Source: Escherichia coli (GTDB taxonomy: Bacteria; Pseudomonadota; Gammaproteobacteria; Enterobacterales; Enterobacteriaceae). From it: a DNA stretch of 9,590 bases. Below are positions 1 through 9,590 of the stretch, piece by piece. Each line of letters opens with the position of its first letter. Within the stretch, counting starts at the first letter, position 1. The stretch lies in assembly GCF_003334255.1 (NCBI RefSeq), contig NZ_QOWU01000087.1. One strand, 5' to 3'. Position numbers and translations under genes: made by a program. The notes beneath the pieces were generated by a model. The model had not been told where the DNA came from. It worked only from the letters and a program-made list of their open reading frames with translations, and did no database searches.

Positions 1-79
1 AGTTATCGTGAGAGTAATTCATCGGCACGTTAAATCATATCAGGCGTAATACCACAACCCTTAAGTTAGCGCTTATGGG
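1..79. repeat. Left terminal inverted repeat, 79 bp, exact reverse complement of 9512-9590
   Basis: Reverse-complementing 9512-9590 by hand reproduces bases 1-79 with no mismatch. The match breaks at position 80 (g on the left, t at 9511 on the right). Beyond that there is a weaker imperfect match (left gtaaaacccc versus the reverse complement of right gggggttttt). Confidence 0.93.
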
Positions 80-109
80 GTAAAACCCCGCGTACTGAAT
101 TGTGATGGT

Positions 110-260
110 TTGGTCTCCTGCACCCTTTTTTAATTTATATTGTTTATGTGAATATTATGCCTATGTTTATTATTCATATATATTACGGATGAAAATTATT
201 TGATTATTCATAATGTAAATATTTTATTGAATGATATATATCACAGATAATTTTTAATAT
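110..260 (+). promoter_or_regulatory. AT-rich region upstream of cas3, putative promoter and possible nucleoid-protein binding region
   Basis: A long, very AT-rich run (ttttttaatttatattgtttatgtgaatattatgcc...cacagataatttttaatat) lies directly 5' of the cas3 ATG and contains several TATAAT-like hexamers. No specific -35/-10 pair can be assigned with confidence. A regulatory role is inferred by analogy to H-NS-silenced cas promoters in Enterobacteriaceae. Confidence 0.4.
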
Positions 261-2960
261 ATGCGTAAATATCCTTTAAGTTTACTGAAGGATAAAAATA
301 TTGTGACTTTTTTTGATTTCTGGGGAAAAACCCGACGCGGCGAGAAAGACGGGGGCGACGACTATCACCTTCTTTGCTGGCATTCGCTGGATGTAGCCGC
401 GATGGGCTATTTAATGGTTAAAAGAAATTGCTTCGGGCTGGCTGATTATTTTCGTCAATTAGGGATTTCTGACAAGGAACAGGCGGCTCAATTTTTCGCC
501 TGGTTGCTGTGCTGGCACGATATTGGAAAATTTGCCCGCTCTTTTCAACAACTTTACCTGCCCCCTGAACTCAAGATTCAGGAAGGTGCCAGAAAAAATT
601 ACGAAAAAATCTCTCATTCAACGCTGGGCTACTGGTTGTGGAATCATTATTTAAGTGAATGTCAGGAGTTACTTCCTTCATCTTCGCTCTCTCCGCGCAA
701 ACTTAGGCGAGTGATAGAAATGTGGATGCCCGTGACGACAGGGCATCATGGTCGGCCCCCTGATCGTATGGATGAATTGGATAATTTTCTGCCTGAAGAC
801 AAAGCTGCAGCACGAGATTTTCTCCTTGAAATCAAACCACTGTTTCCGCTCATAGAGATCCCCGCATTCTGGGATGATGATGAGGGCATTGAACTTATAA
901 AACACCTTTCCTGGTATATCTCTGCAACCGTCGTGCTCGCAGACTGGACGGGTTCGTCAACGCGATTTTTTCCACGCGTCGCACACCCAATGGATATTAA
1001 AGGTTACTGGCAGAAAACTTTAATTCAGGCTCAAAACGCCTTAACCGTCTTTCCTCTAAAAGCAAAAGTCGCGCCTTTCAACGGAATTAATACGCTGTTT
1101 CCTTTTATTGAGAATCCGACACCGTTACAGCAAAAGGTGCTGGATCTGGATATCAGCCAGCAAGGACCGCAGTTATTTATTCTGGAAGATGTGACTGGCG
1201 CAGGTAAAACAGAAGCGGCGCTTATCCTGGCGCACAGGTTGATAGCTGCGGGGAAAGCTCAGGGGCTGTTTTTTGGTCTGCCAACAATGGCAACGGCCAA
1301 TGCCATGTACGATCGGCTGGTCAAAACCTGGCTTGCTTTCTATTCGCCAGAATCCCGCCCCAGCCTGGTGCTGGCACATAGTGCCCGCACATTAATGGAC
1401 CGCTTTAATGAATCACTCTGGTCTGGTGATTTAGTCGGGTCAGAAGAACCGGATGAACAAACGTTCAGTCAGGGATGTGCGGCCTGGTTTGCCGACAGTA
1501 ACAAGAAGGCGTTGCTGGCTGAAATTGGCGTCGGCACGCTGGATCAGGCGATGATGGCGGTGATGCCGTTCAAACATAATAATCTGCGGCTTCTGGGGCT
1601 GAGTAACAAAATCCTGCTGGCTGATGAGATCCACGCCTGTGACGCTTACATGTCGTGCATTCTTGAAGGGTTGATCGAGCGGCAGGCGCGTGGCGGAAAC
1701 AGCGTTATTTTGCTTTCTGCCACGTTATCTCAACAGCAGCGCGACAAACTCGTCGCTGCCTTTGCGCGGGGTACAGAGGGCCAGCAAGAAGCTCCGTTCC
1801 TGGAAAAGGATGATTACCCCTGGCTGACGCATGTCACGAAATCCGATGTGAACTCACACCGGGTAGCGACGCGCAAAGACGTTGAGCGTAGCGTCAGCGT
1901 GGGTTGGCTTCATAGTGAACAAGAGTGTATTGCGCGTATCGAATCGGCGGTAAGTCAGGGGAAATGCATCGCCTGGATCCGGAATTCTGTCGATGACGCT
2001 ATTAAGGTTCATCGTCAGCTGCTTGCCCGCGGCGTCATTCCTGCTTCCAGCCTTTCACTTTTTCATAGCCGCTTTGCTTTTAGCGATCGCCAGCGAATTG
2101 AAACGGAAACGCTGGCACGCTTTGGTAAATATTGTAGTTTACAGAGAGCGTCGCAAGTCATTGTTTGTACACAAGTAATTGAGCAAAGCGTGGATATTGA
2201 CCTGGACGAAATGATCTCCGACCTGGCCCCTGTTGATTTGCTGATTCAGCGAGCAGGACGATTACAGCGGCATATCCGCGATATTAATGGTCAGTTAAAG
2301 CGTGACGGAAAGGACGAGCGTTCCCCCCCTGAATTGCTGATTCTGGCTCCCGTCTGGGACGACTCTCCTGGCGACGAATGGTTTGGCAGTGCCATGCGTA
2401 ACAGTGCATTTGTCTATCCCGATCATGGGCGAATCTGGCTGACGCAGCGTGTGCTGCGTGAGCAAGGTGCTATTCAGATGCCACACGCAGCCCGGCTTCT
2501 TATTGAATCCGTCTACGGTGAGGACGTGGTAATGCCGGAAGGATTTGCCCGCAGCGAGCAGGAGCAAGTGGGCAAATATTACTGTGATCGCGCAATGGCT
2601 AAAAAGTTTGTGCTGAACTTCAGGCCCGGCTATGCCGCCAATATCAACGATTACCTCCCGGAAAAACTGTCGACACGTCTGGCTGAGGAGTCTGTTTCCC
2701 TGTGGCTGGCTACCTGTATTGACGGTGTGGTGAAGCCTTATGCCACCGGTGCTCACGCATGGGAAATGAGCGTTGTCAGAGTGCGCCGGAGCTGGTGGAA
2801 AAAACATCGGGATGAGTTTTCTTTACTGGAGGGAGAGGCGTTCAGGCTGTGGTGCATTGAACAGCGACAAGATCCGGAGATGGCAAACGTGATTTTAGTC
2901 AACGATGACGAAAGTTGCGGGTATTCGGCTACGGAAGGATTGATTGGCAAGGTTGGTTGA
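261..2960 (+). CDS. cas3: Cas3, type I HD-nuclease / SF2 helicase
   Basis: 899-aa ORF. The N-terminal HD domain shows HLLCWHSLDVA and CWHDIGK (HD motif). Helicase motifs follow: Walker A TGAGKTEAA, motif II LLADEIHACD, SAT, and motif VI QRAGRLQRH. It sits at the head of a cas operon. The start at 261 has no obvious Shine-Dalgarno, so the start codon is less certain than the stop. Confidence 0.93.
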   Translation: MRKYPLSLLKDKNIVTFFDFWGKTRRGEKDGGDDYHLLCWHSLDVAAMGYLMVKRNCFGLADYFRQLGISDKEQAAQFFAWLLCWHDIGKFARSFQQLYLPPELKIQEGARKNYEKISHSTLGYWLWNHYLSECQELLPSSSLSPRKLRRVIEMWMPVTTGHHGRPPDRMDELDNFLPEDKAAARDFLLEIKPLFPLIEIPAFWDDDEGIELIKHLSWYISATVVLADWTGSSTRFFPRVAHPMDIKGYWQKTLIQAQNALTVFPLKAKVAPFNGINTLFPFIENPTPLQQKVLDLDISQQGPQLFILEDVTGAGKTEAALILAHRLIAAGKAQGLFFGLPTMATANAMYDRLVKTWLAFYSPESRPSLVLAHSARTLMDRFNESLWSGDLVGSEEPDEQTFSQGCAAWFADSNKKALLAEIGVGTLDQAMMAVMPFKHNNLRLLGLSNKILLADEIHACDAYMSCILEGLIERQARGGNSVILLSATLSQQQRDKLVAAFARGTEGQQEAPFLEKDDYPWLTHVTKSDVNSHRVATRKDVERSVSVGWLHSEQECIARIESAVSQGKCIAWIRNSVDDAIKVHRQLLARGVIPASSLSLFHSRFAFSDRQRIETETLARFGKYCSLQRASQVIVCTQVIEQSVDIDLDEMISDLAPVDLLIQRAGRLQRHIRDINGQLKRDGKDERSPPELLILAPVWDDSPGDEWFGSAMRNSAFVYPDHGRIWLTQRVLREQGAIQMPHAARLLIESVYGEDVVMPEGFARSEQEQVGKYYCDRAMAKKFVLNFRPGYAANINDYLPEKLSTRLAEESVSLWLATCIDGVVKPYATGAHAWEMSVVRVRRSWWKKHRDEFSLLEGEAFRLWCIEQRQDPEMANVILVNDDESCGYSATEGLIGKVG

Positions 2961-3057: not shown

Positions 3058-4620
3058 ATGAACTCGTTTTCACTTCTGACAACCCCGTGGTTGCCCGTTC
3101 GTTTTAAAGACGGAACGACAGGCAAACTGGCGCCAGTCGATCTGGCGGATGAAAATGTTGTCGATATTTCTGCGCCGCGGGCAGATCTCCAGGGTGCGGT
3201 ATGGCAGTTTTTGCTGGGGCTACTACAAACCAGCTTCGCGCCAAAAGATCATCGTCGTTGGGATGATATCTGGGAAGACGGACTGGAAGCTGAAAAGCTA
3301 CGGGAAGCATTGCAGTCATTAGAACATGCTTTCCAGTTTGGGCCAGATTCCCCTTCATTTATGCAGGATTTCGAGGCGCTCACCGGAGATAAAGTTCCGG
3401 TCGCTTCGCTACTGCCTGAGATTCCCGGCGCTCAAACAACGAAGTTTAATAAAGACCACTTTATCAAGCGTGGTGTAACGGAATACCTGTGCCCACATTG
3501 TTCTGCGTTAGCTCTGTTCTCCCTACAGTTGAATGCGCCGTCAGGTGGCAAAGGCTACCGCACCGGTTTACGCGGCGGTGGGCCGATGACCACTCTGATT
3601 GAATTACAGGAATATCAGGGTAATCAACAAACTCCCTTGTGGCGCAAACTGTGGATCAATGTCATGCCGCAGGATGAAGCCGATTTACCGCTACCCAAAA
3701 AATTTGACGATCTGGTTTTCCCCTGGCTTGGCCCGACGCGCACCAGCGAACTGGCCGGTGCGGTGGTAACCGATGAGCAGGTCAATAAACTCCAGGCGTA
3801 CTGGGGAATGCCTCGCCGTATTCGTATTGATTTTAATACCACGACAGTCGGCAACTGCGATATTTGCGGTGAGCAGAGCGACGCGCTCCTGAGCCTGATG
3901 ACGACCAAAAATTACGGTGCGAATTATGCCATGTGGCAGCATCCCTTAACGCCTTACCGTGTACCACTTAAAGAGGGTGGCGAGTTTTACTCCGTTAAAC
4001 CACAACCGGGCGGTTTAATCTGGCGTGACTGGTTAGGCCTTATCGAAACGGGTAAATCAGAAAACAATACGGAACTTCCCGCGCTGGTGGTGAAACTCTT
4101 CAATGCCAGCAGTCTCAAGCAGGCAAAAGTGGGCCTGTGGGGATTTGGCTATGATTTCGACAACATGAAAGCGCGCTGTTGGTACGAACACCATTTCCCG
4201 CTGCTGCTCGATAAAAAAGAAGGTCAGATACCGAAGCTGCGGCTGGCTGCGCAAACAGCTTCACGGATTCTAAGTCTGTTACGGAGTGCATTGAAAGAAG
4301 CATGGTTCTCCGATCCAAAAGGTGCAAGGGGTGATTTTAGTTTTGTGGATATCGACTTCTGGAACAAAACTCAGCATCGCTTTCTGAGGTTAGTGCGCCA
4401 AATTGAAGAAGGTCAGGATGCGGATGAATTACTCAGCAAATGGAATAAGGAAATTTGGTTATTCGCACGTCAGGATTTTGACGAGCGTGTATTCACCAAT
4501 CCTTATGAGCCCGTTGATCTGGAACGCGTCATGACCGCGCGCAAGAAATATTTTACAACATCGGCGGAGAAGCAAAGTGCTAAAGCCGCCAGGGAGAAAA
4601 AGCAGGAGGCTGCTGAATGA
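3058..4620 (+). CDS. casA: Cse1/CasA, large subunit of the type I-E Cascade complex
   Basis: A large ORF immediately after cas3 and before cse2, in the conserved I-E order. I chose the ATG at 3058 (MNSFSLLTTPWLPVRF...) because GAGAGG lies 7 nt upstream as a Shine-Dalgarno. The ORF-track start at 2989 lacks one. The stop TGA at 4618-4620 overlaps the casB ATG. Confidence 0.88.
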   Translation: MNSFSLLTTPWLPVRFKDGTTGKLAPVDLADENVVDISAPRADLQGAVWQFLLGLLQTSFAPKDHRRWDDIWEDGLEAEKLREALQSLEHAFQFGPDSPSFMQDFEALTGDKVPVASLLPEIPGAQTTKFNKDHFIKRGVTEYLCPHCSALALFSLQLNAPSGGKGYRTGLRGGGPMTTLIELQEYQGNQQTPLWRKLWINVMPQDEADLPLPKKFDDLVFPWLGPTRTSELAGAVVTDEQVNKLQAYWGMPRRIRIDFNTTTVGNCDICGEQSDALLSLMTTKNYGANYAMWQHPLTPYRVPLKEGGEFYSVKPQPGGLIWRDWLGLIETGKSENNTELPALVVKLFNASSLKQAKVGLWGFGYDFDNMKARCWYEHHFPLLLDKKEGQIPKLRLAAQTASRILSLLRSALKEAWFSDPKGARGDFSFVDIDFWNKTQHRFLRLVRQIEEGQDADELLSKWNKEIWLFARQDFDERVFTNPYEPVDLERVMTARKKYFTTSAEKQSAKAAREKKQEAAE

Positions 4621-5153
4621 GTATTGTAAAAGAGGAGCACAAAGCCACGCTGCGCAAATGGCACGAGGAATTGCAGGAGAAACGTGGCGAACGTGCCAGT
4701 CTGCGGCGTAGTACGACGGTTAATGATGTTTGTCTGACGGATGGATTTCGCCTGTTTCTGAAGAACAGACAAATAAAGTGGCAGGATGAACCTGAGTGGC
4801 GTATCACCGCACTGGCGCTGATAGCCGCAGTTAGCGCCAATGTTAAAGCTATTGATGAACGGCAGCCTTTTGCCGCGCAGCTGGCGGCGGTAATGTCAAA
4901 GGGGCGTTTTACTCGTCTGTCGGCAGTAAAAACACCGGATGAATTACTGCGCCAGTTACGCCGCGCAGTCAGATTATTAAACGGTTCCGTCAATCTTGAC
5001 TCTCTGGCAGAGGGGGTCTTCCGTTGGTGCCAGGAGAGCGACGACCTGCTCAATCATCACCGCCGCCAGCAGCGGCCAACCGAATTTATCCGTATCCGCT
5101 GGGCGCTGGAATATTACCAGGCTGGCGACGCCGATAACGAACAAAATCAATAA
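4617..5153 (+). CDS. casB: Cse2/CasB, small subunit of Cascade
   Basis: 178-aa ORF in the expected position between cse1 and cas7. AGGAGG lies at 4604-4609, and the ATGA overlap with the casA stop indicates translational coupling. The assignment rests mainly on size and synteny. The sequence is not close to K-12 CasB as I recall it. Confidence 0.8.
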   Translation: MSIVKEEHKATLRKWHEELQEKRGERASLRRSTTVNDVCLTDGFRLFLKNRQIKWQDEPEWRITALALIAAVSANVKAIDERQPFAAQLAAVMSKGRFTRLSAVKTPDELLRQLRRAVRLLNGSVNLDSLAEGVFRWCQESDDLLNHHRRQQRPTEFIRIRWALEYYQAGDADNEQNQ

Positions 5154-5164
5154 AGGACTATCTC

Positions 5165-6220
5165 ATGACAACATTTATTCAGCTTCATTTGTTAACCGCT
5201 TACCCTGCTGCCAACCTTAACCGTGATGATACCGGTGCGCCAAAAACTGTGGTGCTGGGTGGAGCAACGCGTCTGCGCGTTTCCTCGCAAAGTCTGAAAC
5301 GTGCGTGGCGCACTTCTGCACTTTTTGAACAGGCACTGGCGGGCCATATTGGTATTCGCAGTGGGCGTATTGCGCGTGAGGCGGCAACTATCCTGATTGA
5401 GAAAGGAATCGAAGAGAAAAAAGCCATCGAATGGGCGGCAAAAATTGCAGATTATCTTGGGAAAGCTAAAAACGACAAAAAACCAAAAGATCCGCTCACT
5501 AACGCCGAAACTGAACAGTTAGTCCATATCAGCCCGGCAGAATTTGACGCCGTAAAAGTGCTGGCCCATCAGCTTGCAGAAGAAAAGCGCGCGCCAAAAG
5601 AGGAAGATCTCGCGTTGTTACGCAAAGACCGTATGGCGGTAGATATTGCCATGTTTGGTCGTATGCTGGCGAATAAACCCGAGTTTAATGTTGAAGCCGC
5701 CTGCCAGGTAGCGCACGCATTTGGTGTCAGTGAAACGATTGTCGAAGATGATTTTTTCACCGCCGTTGATGATTTGCGCCAGGCTTCTGAAGATGCCGGT
5801 GCCGGGCATCTTGGTGAAACCGGATTCGGTTCTGCACTGTTCTACACCTATATCTGCATTGATAAAGATCTGCTGGTCGAAAACCTTGGCGGTGACGAAG
5901 CGTTAGCTAATCAGACCATACGTGCCTTTACGGAAGCCGCACTTAAAGTCTCCCCAACCGGCAAACAGAACAGCTTTGCCAGCCGTGCCTACGCCTCCTG
6001 GGCGCTGGCAGAAAAAGGCACCGATCAACCGCGTTCTCTGGCGGCAGCTTTCTATGAACCCATTAATGGCACCCGTCAGTTAGAGGTGGCGGTGCAGCGT
6101 ATTACAACTCTTCGCGAAAATATGAATACGGTCTACGAACAGAAGACCGATTACGCAAGTTTTGACGTGATGAACAAACAGGGAAGCATGAAGGACGTGC
6201 TGGACTTTATCTGCGCGTAA
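5165..6220 (+). CDS. casC: Cas7e/CasC, Cascade backbone subunit
   Basis: 351 aa. The N-terminus (LLTAYPAANLNRDDTGAPKTVVLGGATRLRVSSQSLKRAWR) matches the conserved Cas7e N-terminal motif (..LNRDD...GG.RR.R.SSQSLKRA.R). AAAGGA lies upstream as a Shine-Dalgarno. Confidence 0.92.
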   Translation: MTTFIQLHLLTAYPAANLNRDDTGAPKTVVLGGATRLRVSSQSLKRAWRTSALFEQALAGHIGIRSGRIAREAATILIEKGIEEKKAIEWAAKIADYLGKAKNDKKPKDPLTNAETEQLVHISPAEFDAVKVLAHQLAEEKRAPKEEDLALLRKDRMAVDIAMFGRMLANKPEFNVEAACQVAHAFGVSETIVEDDFFTAVDDLRQASEDAGAGHLGETGFGSALFYTYICIDKDLLVENLGGDEALANQTIRAFTEAALKVSPTGKQNSFASRAYASWALAEKGTDQPRSLAAAFYEPINGTRQLEVAVQRITTLRENMNTVYEQKTDYASFDVMNKQGSMKDVLDFICA

Positions 6221-6230
6221 GGGGCGGCTT

Positions 6231-6977
6231 ATGAGCCAATATCTGATTTTTCAGCTTCATGGGCCGATGGCGTCCTGGGGTGTCGATGCTCCAGGTGAAG
6301 TTCGTCATACCCATGAACTTCCTTCGCGCTCAGCATTGCTGGGGCTACTGGCTGCCGGGGTAGGGATTCGGCGTGATGATACCGAACGCTTAAACGCGTT
6401 TAATCGCCACTATTCACTGGTGGTTTGCGCCAGCCGTAACCCGCGCTGGGCACGGGATTATCACACGGTCCAGATGCCAAAAGAGGTGCGTAAAGCACGT
6501 TATTTCAGCCGTCGCGAAGAGTTGAGCGACCCTGAGCTTTTGAGCGCGATTATCTCCCGGCGCGACTACTACACCGATGCCTGGTGGATGGTGGCGGTGG
6601 CAACAACCCCCGATGCGCCTTACAGCCTCGAACAGTTGCAGGACGGTTTACGCCATCCGGTTTTTCCGCTTTATCTGGGGCGAAAAAGTCATCCGCTGGC
6701 GTTACCACTTGCGCCGTTACTGCTCGAAGGCAACGCGTCTGATGTCTTACGTAACGCATACCAACAGTATCAGGATCGTTTCCGCGAACTGAAAGTCTCA
6801 CTCCCGAAACTTCAGGATGAATGCTGGTGGGAAGGGGAGCACGATGGTTTGGTCGCAAGCAAAATATTACGCCGCCGGGATGTTCCTTTAAATCGTCAGC
6901 AGTGGCTGTTTGGGGAACGCACCATCAATCAGGGGCCGTGGCTCAGCAAGGAGGAACCATGTACCTCTCAAGAATAA
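6231..6977 (+). CDS. casD: Cas5e/CasD, Cascade subunit
   Basis: 248 aa. The N-terminus (YLIFQLHGPMASWG...SALLGLLAAGVGIRRDD) closely parallels the K-12 CasD N-terminus as I recall it (YLILRLAGPMQAWG...SGLLGLLGACLGIQRDD). It sits in the correct operon position. Confidence 0.92.
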   Translation: MSQYLIFQLHGPMASWGVDAPGEVRHTHELPSRSALLGLLAAGVGIRRDDTERLNAFNRHYSLVVCASRNPRWARDYHTVQMPKEVRKARYFSRREELSDPELLSAIISRRDYYTDAWWMVAVATTPDAPYSLEQLQDGLRHPVFPLYLGRKSHPLALPLAPLLLEGNASDVLRNAYQQYQDRFRELKVSLPKLQDECWWEGEHDGLVASKILRRRDVPLNRQQWLFGERTINQGPWLSKEEPCTSQE

Positions 6978-7605
6978 CCTTACATACCGGCCAGCTTTCG
7001 CCTGCGCAGTTGCTGCATCTGGTGGATCGCGGTGAATATGTGATGCATCAGTGGTTGTGGGATCTCTTCCCTGGCGGCAAAGAAAGGCAATTTCTTTATC
7101 GTCGGGAAGAACTCCAGGGCGCGTTTCGCTTTTTTGTCCTCTCGCAGGAACGCCCGGCGGAAAGTGAAACTTTCACCATCGAATGCCGGTCATTTACGCC
7201 CGAGCTGAGTACCGGACAACAACTTTGTTTCAACCTGCGGGCGAATCCAACAATCTGTAAAGCGGGCAAGCGCCACGATCTGCTGATGGAGGCGAAACGG
7301 CAGGTGAGGGGACAGGCGGAAGGAAGTGATGTCTGGTTGCATCAACAACAGGCGGCGCTGGACTGGCTGGCAGCGCAGGGGGAAAGAAGTGGTTTTACAC
7401 TACTGGATACCTCGGTTGATGCCTACCGACAACAACAACTCCGGCGGGAAAACTCCTGGCAACTGATCCAGTTCAGTAGTGTGGATTATACGGGGATGCT
7501 TACGGTCACCGATCCTGGGTTATTTCTGCAACGTCTCAGTCAGGGGTATGGCAAAAGCCGGGCGTTCGGTTGTGGTCTGATGCTGATCAAACCTGGAGCA
7601 GAGGC

Positions 7606-7609
<4 letters not shown>
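6959..7609 (+). CDS. casE: Cas6e/CasE, pre-crRNA endoribonuclease
   Basis: I chose the internal ATG at 6959 (MYLSRITL...), which has AAGGAGG at 6948-6954. Cas6e proteins begin MYLS.., and this gives about 216 aa rather than the 262-aa track ORF. The C-terminal glycine-rich motif GYGKSRAFGCGLM is typical of Cas6e. The gene overlaps the casD 3' end by 19 bp. Confidence 0.88.
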
Positions 7610-8819
<1,210 letters not shown>

Positions 8820-8915
8820 GTTATCCGTTCTTTAAAAATAAGGAAATGTTTTAATTTAGTTGGTAGATTGTTGATGCGGAATAAATTTGTTTAAAAACAG
8901 TTATGTATGCTTAGT
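8820..8915 (+). promoter_or_regulatory. CRISPR leader, AT-rich, expected to hold the pre-crRNA promoter and integration signals
   Basis: A 96-bp AT-rich stretch between the cas2 stop and the first repeat (ttatccgttctttaaaaataaggaaatgttttaatttagttggtagattgttgatgcggaataaatttgtttaaaaacagttatgtatgcttagt). Its position and composition are typical of I-E leaders. No individual promoter or IHF site is assigned. Confidence 0.75.
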
Positions 8916-9493
8916 GTGTTCCCCGCGCCAGCGGGGATAAACCGAACATTAAATTGCCGTGCTGGATGAATCGCGGGTGTTCCCCGCGCCAGCGGGGATA
9001 AACCCTGGATCAGCTGGTTCAATCGTTTACAGCACTGGTGTTCCCCGCGCCAGCGGGGATAAACCGTCGTTCGAGGCGTTTCGCGCCTGGGCGATTATGT
9101 GTTCCCCGCGCCAGCGGGGATAAACCGTCGAAAAACTTCGTCCTGAAAAAATTCATCATGTGTTCCCCGCGCCAGCGGGGATAAACCGGCAGTAAATTAT
9201 TTGACCTCGTTGATAATCCCGTGTTCCCCGCGCCAGCGGGGATAAACCGCCGGTGCAACTGATATTGATAAACGTCGACTCGTGTTCCCCGCGCCAGCGG
9301 GGATAAACCGACACCCGACCGCTAACCGATTTCGTTACAGTAGTGTTCCCCGCGCCAGCGGGGATAAACCGACGTCTATCATTTTCAGTACAAGCTGGGT
9401 TTTGTGTTCCCCGCGCCAGCGGGGATAAACCGCCGGTGTAATCAAAGAGAAAAATCGCCTTTTTGTGTTCCCCGCGCCAGCGGGGATAAACCG
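8916..9493 (+). CRISPR. CRISPR array, 10 direct repeats of 29 bp (GTGTTCCCCGCGCCAGCGGGGATAAACCG) and 9 spacers of 32 bp
   Basis: Repeats start at 8916, 8977, 9038, 9099, 9160, 9221, 9282, 9343, 9404 and 9465, a strict 61-bp period. The repeat carries the palindromic core CCCCGCG..CGCGGGG characteristic of Enterobacteriaceae I-E repeats. Repeat 2 ends in C rather than G. The leader is on the cas2 side, so transcription is on the + strand. Confidence 0.97.
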
Positions 9494-9511
9494 AGTTAAG
9501 AGGGGGTTTTT

Positions 9512-9590
9512 CCCATAAGCGCTAACTTAAGGGTTGTGGTATTACGCCTGATATGATTTAACGTGCCGATGAATTACTCTCACGATAACT
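9512..9590. repeat. Right terminal inverted repeat, 79 bp, exact reverse complement of 1-79
   Basis: See the left copy. It begins 18 nt after the last CRISPR repeat. Confidence 0.93.

Follow-up and report, generated by a model that had tools for sequence, protein, structure and literature searches.

[quoted passage not shown] The same study argued for replacement of the whole of E1 by E2, leader included. The two variants have also been named EO and EK, and their spacer-acquisition motifs differ (Diez-Villasenor et al., 2013; PMC3737337). In a 2025 survey, comparison of UPEC var. B-8552 with var. K-12 gave identities of 73% (DNA) and 84% (protein) for cas1 and of 75% and 86% for cas2, with the remaining proteins 23-32% identical (PMC12736100). 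[quoted passage not shown] Where the available portions of PMC12736100 and PMC7712790 explain the contrast, they invoke purifying selection or whole-locus transfer; these portions contain no cross-genus phylogenetic test of Cas1-Cas2 against the effectors, no border map and no hybrid. More broadly, adaptation and effector modules are held to shuffle and to evolve semi-independently (Koonin and Makarova, 2019; PMC6452270). That concept spans types and subtypes, whereas the exchange considered here lies within one subtype, with a shared repeat and with defined borders, one within cas3 and one where cas6e ends.

The window, which is the whole 9,590-nt stretch of E. coli DNA analysed here, contains a complete type I-E CRISPR-Cas operon on the plus strand, and none of its eight cas reading frames is broken (Table 1). 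The genes stand in the type I-E order, cas3-cse1-cse2-cas7-cas5-cas6e-cas1-cas2, followed by the leader and an array of 29-nt palindromic repeats (GTGTTCCCCGCGCCAGCGGGGATAAACCG, ten copies) and 32-nt spacers, which is the type I-E pattern. All eight proteins score above the curated NCBIfam cut-offs for type I-E. Cse1 reaches 610.6 bits against TIGR02547 casA_cse1 (cut-off 70) and Cse2 reaches 99 bits against TIGR02548 casB_cse2 (cut-off 28.5), while Cas7e, Cas5e, Cas6e, Cas1e, Cas2e and Cas3 pass TIGR01869, TIGR01868, TIGR01907, TIGR03638, TIGR01873, TIGR01587 and TIGR01596, with Cas3 reaching both the cas3_core and the cas3_HD cut-offs. Two further models are missed, as Cas3 scores 425 bits against the PRK09694 cut-off of 569 and Cse1 scores 111 bits against the cut-off of 576 of a second Cse1 model, PRK09693. 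These two are probably K-12-type models, to judge by a locus distantly related to the K-12 class (L072), which scores 971 and 549 against them, respectively.

Table 1. Features of the 9,590-nt window; identities to K-12 are for protein unless stated otherwise.
Feature	Coordinates	Strand	Remarks
IS421 (IS4-family) terminal part	1..91		query 1-91 96.7% identical to IS421
AT-rich stretch 5' of cas3	92..260	+	GC ~0.35
cas3	261..2960	+	E1 class; HD nuclease + helicase; 31.6% identical to K-12 Cas3
cse1/casA (cas8e)	3058..4620	+	E1 class; 24.1% identical to K-12
cse2/casB (cas11)	4617..5153	+	E1 class; ~24% identical to K-12; no tblastn match
cas7e/casC	5165..6220	+	E1 class; 33.1% identical to K-12
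cas5e/casD	6231..6977	+	E1 class; 35.0% identical to K-12
cas6e/casE	6959..7609	+	E1 class; 31.2% identical to K-12; last gene of the proposed exchangeable interference cassette
Module junction	7606..7639	+	cas6e/cas1 overlap to start of blastn homology
cas1e	7606..8529	+	vs K-12: 84.6% protein, 73.8% DNA; synonymous sites saturated
cas2e	8526..8819	+	vs K-12: 86.2% protein, 76.4% DNA
CRISPR leader	8820..8915	+	96 nt
CRISPR array	8916..9493	+	10 repeats (GTGTTCCCCGCGCCAGCGGGGATAAACCG) + 9 spacers; 61-nt period; cut off by IS421
Second IS421 terminal part	9500..9590	inverted orientation	sits in the array; left boundary approximate

Both ends of the window consist of IS421 sequence: positions 1-79 are the exact reverse complement of positions 9512-9590, a perfect inverted terminal run of 79 nt, and in the nearest genome an IS421 transposase adjoins cas3. 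The insertions hide the flanks of the operon; its probable position, between cysH and iap, is that of the locus of E. coli N18-04097, which is 99.6% identical to the window and sits between cysH/hok and iap. The IS421 pair was considered as a vehicle of exchange and dropped, as the copies enclose the entire operon and some of the array and do not mark the borders of the cassette described below. Bases 77-132, which run from the insertion sequence into the AT-rich stretch, are found at 100% identity even in E. coli genomes that have no other match to the window.

The window is an ordinary E1/EO locus, collinear with the E1 loci of E. albertii, Salmonella and Citrobacter. It shares with the published cas-E1/EO (PMC3903273, PMC3737337) its gene order, a GC content near 53.5% (the cas genes lie mostly at about 0.50-0.58) and its status as the majority variant. 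There is no essential difference between them; the window has IS421 5' of cas3 and a second copy that cuts the array after ten repeats. Its repeat, which starts with GTG, was read as the published 'type A' repeat tied to cas-E1/EO, while the K-12 repeat starts with GAG. Of 5,426 complete E. coli genomes, 2,412 carry 80% or more of the window, and O157:H7 Rafaela_II matches 94% of it at 94.6% identity. The E1 junction of cas6e and cas1 was found in approximately 2,650 of these 5,426 genomes and the E2 junction in approximately 717. Compared with the cas-E2/EK locus of K-12 (YgcB, CasABCDE, YgbT and YgbF), the subtype and gene order are the same, as is probably the chromosomal site, and the repeat differs by one base. 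In K-12, however, casE and cas1 are 15 nt apart, where those of the window overlap as GTGA, and the leader has 105 nt instead of 96 nt.

The gene-by-gene alignment used the K-12 MG1655 locus (NC_000913.3; L001) as reference. When E. coli genomes were searched with the window by megablast, K-12 was matched in the array alone and not in cas1-cas2, and direct alignment was used instead. In global alignments, Cas3 and the five Cascade subunits are 24-37% identical to their K-12 counterparts, and their DNA has no detectable similarity to K-12 anywhere 5' of the cas1 start; from the cas1 start codon on, DNA similarity is about 75-80%. In segments of 40 residues, the effectors are at or below 55% everywhere, while Cas1 lies at 82-95%, apart from 48% over its last 27 or so residues, and Cas2 lies at 78-90%. 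The step falls between adjacent segments, 35% for the last of Cas6e and 88% for the first of Cas1. A reading of the sequence alone had flagged a sharp change in relatedness at the casE/cas1 junction, around 7570-7620, with effectors divergent from K-12. Both points were borne out, as the identity plot is far from uniform along the operon and the step lies exactly at the GTGA overlap of the cas6e stop (7607-7609) with the GTG of cas1 (7606); blastn homology to K-12 begins at 7639. The similarity step at the cas6e/cas1 border is thus real, and it is already published: the contrast between Cas1/Cas2 and the effectors, including its per-gene identities, is the known difference between E1/EO and E2/K-12, and the figures of PMC12736100 are those of the window against K-12.

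The sequence-only reading had also placed Cas1 and Cas2 close to K-12. This holds for the proteins (84.6% and 86.2%) but not for the DNA, which is just 73.8% and 76.4% identical, with pS of 0.84 for cas1 and 0.75 for cas2, values that amount to saturation. Synonymous sites between the window and K-12 are in fact saturated in all eight genes. A Cas1 search with one genome per species gave 80 loci, whose hosts span Enterobacterales, Oceanospirillales, Methylophaga, Shewanella, Parasutterella and Bordetella. In each of these loci, Cas1 and Cas2 have 75-99% identity to the window and likewise to K-12, so a Cas1 identity of about 85% lies near the background of the family. Estimates of omega are 0.014-0.059 for Cas1-Cas2 (with a cas1 dN of 0.009-0.13) and 0.045-0.25 for the effector genes, showing that Cas1-Cas2 is under very strong purifying selection. 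The K-12-like appearance of Cas1 and Cas2 in the window therefore comes mostly from strong constraint. As the divergence of Cas1 is near its plateau, the pair of window and K-12 alone cannot separate a difference in rate from exchange, and it was rejected as proof of recombination; the case rests instead on trees and on those pairs of loci that differ in effector class yet have Cas1 proteins 88-95% identical.

Within E. coli, E1 and E2 differ by replacement of the entire operon, together with cas1-cas2 and the leader, in agreement with PMC3903273, because the synonymous sites of cas1-cas2 are saturated while the flanks of an E1 strain and K-12 are 98% identical, with a dS of about 0.05 in cysD/cysN. 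It follows that the junction in the window is inherited and old and is not a fresh breakpoint. Against E. albertii, dS is 0.18-0.47 and roughly uniform over all eight genes. Among relatives with E1 effectors, the identities of Cas1 and Cas7 to the window drop together with distance: 98% and 95% in E. albertii, 96% and 85% in Salmonella diarizonae, 93% and 85% in Klebsiella and Citrobacter, 87% and 72% in Atlantibacter, and 84% and 56% in Pectobacterium.

In a comparison of 78 type I-E loci, the effector genes sorted into discrete classes (bootstrap 100): E1, with 61 loci and Cas7 at least 47% identical inside the class; E2, with 13 loci including K-12; and four others. Cas7 is 25-35% identical in all 793 cross-class pairs. 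Cas1, on the other hand, is up to 95% identical across classes, with 19 pairs at or above 88%, and within a class it falls to 67-78% in pairs whose Cas7 is still at least 47% identical. The Cas1 of K-12 is 91-95% identical to those of E1-effector loci from UBA5654, Citrobacter portucalensis, Raoultella and Pluralibacter and just 78-86% identical to those of other E2-class loci. The set of 80 loci is a biased sample, since it was made up of those whose Cas1 best matches that of E. coli.

The same conflict appears in bootstrapped neighbour-joining trees built on simple distances from MAFFT alignments and rooted on the Bordetella locus for display only. In the Cas7+Cas5+Cas6e tree, E1 and E2 are each monophyletic (bootstrap 100 and 100), whereas support for their monophyly in the Cas1+Cas2 tree is 0 and 0. 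At least 12 changes of class are needed on the Cas1+Cas2 tree, compared with 2 on the effector tree. The Cas1+Cas2 tree mixes the effector classes and follows the host genus, with same-genus loci of different classes as sisters in Marinomonas (bootstrap 100), Oceanospirillum (100) and Citrobacter (97-100), and K-12 is nested in a 12-member clade of E1-class loci from Enterobacterales (bootstrap 89). The repeat, too, tracks the host and the adaptation block and not the effector class, as GTGTTCCCCGCGCCAGCGGGGATAAACCG is common to most E1-class loci and to three of the four E2-class loci of Enterobacterales. The leader is 96 nt long in most of the loci closest to the window (the E1a group) and 105 nt long in K-12 and in one further locus (L017). 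The trees support separate histories for an adaptation block (cas1-cas2-leader-repeat) and an interference block (cas3 to cas6e), which are joined at cas6e/cas1.

Pairs of loci from the same genus with different effector classes allowed the borders of the interference block to be mapped. In the Oceanospirillum (O. maris and O. linum), Citrobacter (sp. 18056 and C. amalonaticus) and Methylophaga pairs, the two loci share one site in the chromosome, as do those of an Alteromonas MAG and Marisediminitalea. In the three same-genus pairs, homology of the 5' flank ends 40-112 nt into cas3, past the motif YWGK...HLLxYHCLDVAA, and returns exactly at the cas1 ATG; in same-genus pairs that carry a gene for a KilA-N-domain protein between cas6e and cas1, it returns directly after the cas6e stop. 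The borders of the cassette are thus codons 15-40 or so of cas3 and the cas6e stop or cas1 start. In the Oceanospirillum pair, the dS of cas1, 1.18, lies among the values of the flanking genes, which run from 0.40 to saturation; this fits a retained adaptation block and a replaced internal cassette. The Citrobacter case is less clean, because the synonymous sites of cas1 (pS 0.76) are more diverged than those of the flanks (0.50-0.57).

A present-day hybrid was found when synthetic chimeric queries were searched against the 5,426 complete E. coli genomes. A chimera of K-12 cas6e and window cas1 was matched end to end by one genome, at 94.2%, and by all other K-12-type genomes at 84.8%. The reverse chimera, E1 cas6e with K-12 cas1, had no such match among the 5,426 genomes, its best matches being ordinary E1 loci at 85%. 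The matching genome is that of strain BS-04 (NZ_CP172819.1; assembly GCF_044648255.1), whose genes from cas3 to cas6e are of K-12 type. The sequence stays 100% K-12-type for the first 30 nucleotides of cas1 and is then 88-100% window-type through the remainder of cas1, cas2 and the leader. Its informative sites run as 47 of K-12 type followed by 33 that are mostly of window type. The crossover corresponds to positions 7635/7636 of the window, in the first patch of cas1 common to both variants. The exact 36-mer of the BS-04 junction is absent from metagenome contigs, and the exact hybrid Cas1 is encoded in the BS-04 assembly alone. BS-04 is probably a natural hybrid and, as a single genome, less probably an assembly chimera.

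In the sequence-only reading, the step would indicate a recombination breakpoint at cas6e/cas1. That claim stands in part: the two modules do have different histories, as the trees and BS-04 show, but the uniform dS speaks against any recent breakpoint in the window. A recent crossover at about 7606 in the lineage of the strain itself, joining K-12-derived cas1-cas2 to a foreign interference module, would explain why the protein step falls exactly on a gene border, and BS-04 shows that such events are possible. K-12-derived genes would nonetheless hardly differ so much from K-12 in DNA (74-76% identity), nor be saturated at synonymous sites beside flanks at a dS of 0.05, and the same arrangement and sequence occur in approximately 2,400-2,650 genomes of E. 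coli as well as in E. albertii, against which dS is uniform on both sides of the junction. This makes such an event exceedingly improbable. A difference in rate, under which the operon has one history, Cas1-Cas2 merely evolves more slowly than Cas3 and Cascade, and recombination is unneeded, has more in its favour. It is the explanation given earlier for E. coli and Salmonella (PMC3994646), it agrees with the lower omega of Cas1-Cas2, with Cas1 identities of at least 75% in all 80 loci and with synonymous saturation in all eight genes, and it can account for the pair of window and K-12 taken alone (85% versus about 31%) without exchange. Within classes, however, the ratio of dN(cas7) to dN(cas1) is just 2.1-3.1, and a single history sits poorly with Cas1 at 95% beside Cas7 at 31% across classes when pairs of one class combine Cas1 at 67-78% with Cas7 at or above 47%. 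With class monophyly at 0/100 on the Cas1+Cas2 tree and a hybrid in BS-04, the pattern of trees and pairs goes beyond what a pure difference in rate can produce, and we consider rate by itself an improbable explanation.

The reading that we favour, and regard as quite probable, combines strong constraint on Cas1-Cas2 with old classes of interference cassette that have been exchanged repeatedly beside resident cas1-cas2, leader and repeats, the junction in the window being inherited. There are at least two old and discrete classes of cassette, each spanning cas3 from about codon 15-40 to the cas6e stop, namely E1 (as in the window) and E2 (as in K-12). The tree conflict, the homology of the flanks and the one hybrid indicate that these cassettes were swapped repeatedly next to a resident adaptation block. 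Exchange would proceed by homologous recombination through short conserved patches, one probably at the 5' end of cas3 (YWGK...HLLxYHCLDVAA) and the other near the start of cas1 (PIPLKDRxSMIF), in neighbouring genes or within the CRISPR repeats. The direction may also have been the opposite, with cas1-cas2 replaced or homogenised instead of the cassette. Whole type I-E loci of either class would then arrive by transfer, and the resident or locally common version would overwrite or homogenise their cas1-cas2-leader, no other part being similar enough to recombine. Such mobility of the adaptation block would suit the finding that Cas1-Cas2 and the repeats follow host taxonomy and not effector class, and the repeats and cas1-cas2 are also the only places where DNA homology between the classes is detectable; the pattern in BS-04 is compatible with both directions. 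In Oceanospirillum, Citrobacter and Methylophaga, however, the paired loci also share the 5' chromosomal flank and the first codons of cas3, for which in-place replacement of an internal cassette is a better fit than replacement of a 3' block, and DNA identities of 74-78% are low for efficient homologous recombination. A mobile adaptation block is therefore an unlikely account of the pattern, though a more credible one than rate alone.

For the window itself these results have little consequence, as it is a common E. coli I-E variant whose contrast with K-12 is already in the literature; the pattern of exchange at the level of the family is of greater interest than the step in the window. The K-12 model system carries the minority interference module (approximately 717 versus 2,650 of 5,426 complete genomes), so results obtained with K-12 Cascade and Cas3 may not transfer to most E. 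coli, while those obtained with K-12 Cas1-Cas2 probably do. Recurrent swapping of cassettes is supported by the present data. It is possible, if somewhat doubtful, that the divergent cassettes persist as a long-lived polymorphism across Gammaproteobacteria, swapped in place, with pressure from anti-CRISPRs keeping both classes; the anti-CRISPR cause and the function of hybrid loci are conjectural. If this were true, a swap would change every protein surface open to phage anti-CRISPR proteins and would preserve the stored spacers, since a single repeat serves the two classes. The recurrent exchange of cassettes with defined borders thereby offers a testable picture, in which type I-E systems may change their effectors without losing their spacer memory.

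The operon in the window, a type I-E system with the E1 class of interference cassette, lies between two copies of IS421, an IS4-family element (see table), whose termini show exact complementarity over 79 nt. The left copy is located upstream of cas3, while the right copy interrupts the CRISPR array after ten repeats. Because the copies are inverted and occupy both ends, they bracket the operon as in a composite transposon. Another possibility is that the window represents a contig from a short-read assembly, ending in IS repeats. Just inside the left IS end, the 56 nt at positions 77-132 carry no annotated feature and are 96-100% conserved in E. coli genomes that otherwise lack matches to the window, for example O127:H6. 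It possibly represents what is left of the sequence preceding cas3.

Within Cas1, the C-terminal tail is the sole part that is poorly conserved relative to K-12, as the last ~27 codons (8449-8529) share 48% identity in comparison to 82-95% elsewhere in the protein. Two I-E loci (L004 and L080) on short contigs of metagenome-assembled genomes (MAGs) labelled Bacillota and Collinsella encode a Cas1 99% identical to that of the window, and these host labels most likely reflect mis-binning or contamination with Escherichia DNA.

Features of the window and of compared I-E loci
Feature	Locus	Coordinates	Remark
IS421 (IS4-family) terminus, left end	window	1-91	inverted relative to right copy
IS421 (IS4-family) terminus, right end	window	about 9500-9590	inverted relative to left copy
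Natural hybrid I-E locus	L084 (E. coli BS-04, NZ_CP172819.1)	9916-11219	
Type I-E cassette, permuted gene order	L072 (Marisediminitalea aggregata)	2545-9156	
Extra cas6e-cas1 gene	L038	9172-9990	
Extra cas6e-cas1 gene	L073	9177-9998	
Extra cas6e-cas1 gene	L072	9171-9998	

A natural hybrid is found in E. coli BS-04, where cas3 to cas6e are K-12-type, and cas1 from nt 31, cas2 and the leader are E1-type. Only one of the 5,426 complete E. coli genomes searched is of this kind, and no second assembly on record encodes the hybrid Cas1 protein. Downstream of cas2, the first repeat begins after 84 or 96 nt in most other Enterobacterales loci and after 105 nt in both K-12 and Enterobacteriaceae UBA5654, whose Cas1 proteins are 95% identical. 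This common distance hints that the K-12 leader moved along with cas1-cas2.

In M. aggregata, the cassette is ordered cas3, cas6e, a small unassigned ORF (possibly cse2), cas7, cas5 and cse1. Its Cas3 and Cse1 both score high on the NCBIfam models PRK09694 (971 bits) and PRK09693 (549 bits), respectively. The Cas1-Cas2 block shares 87% DNA identity with that of an Alteromonas MAG, though the cassette of the latter is of the ordinary E1 class. In several marine gammaproteobacterial loci, including this one, an extra gene of about 272 amino acids separates cas6e from cas1, and the L038 copy contains a KilA-N domain (Pfam E = 1.4e-17). Similar cas6e-cas1 gaps occur in L067 and L064, and shorter ones in L050 and L056. 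When effector classes are swapped, the extra-gene stretch stays conserved along with cas1-cas2, and the gene is therefore part of the adaptation-side block.
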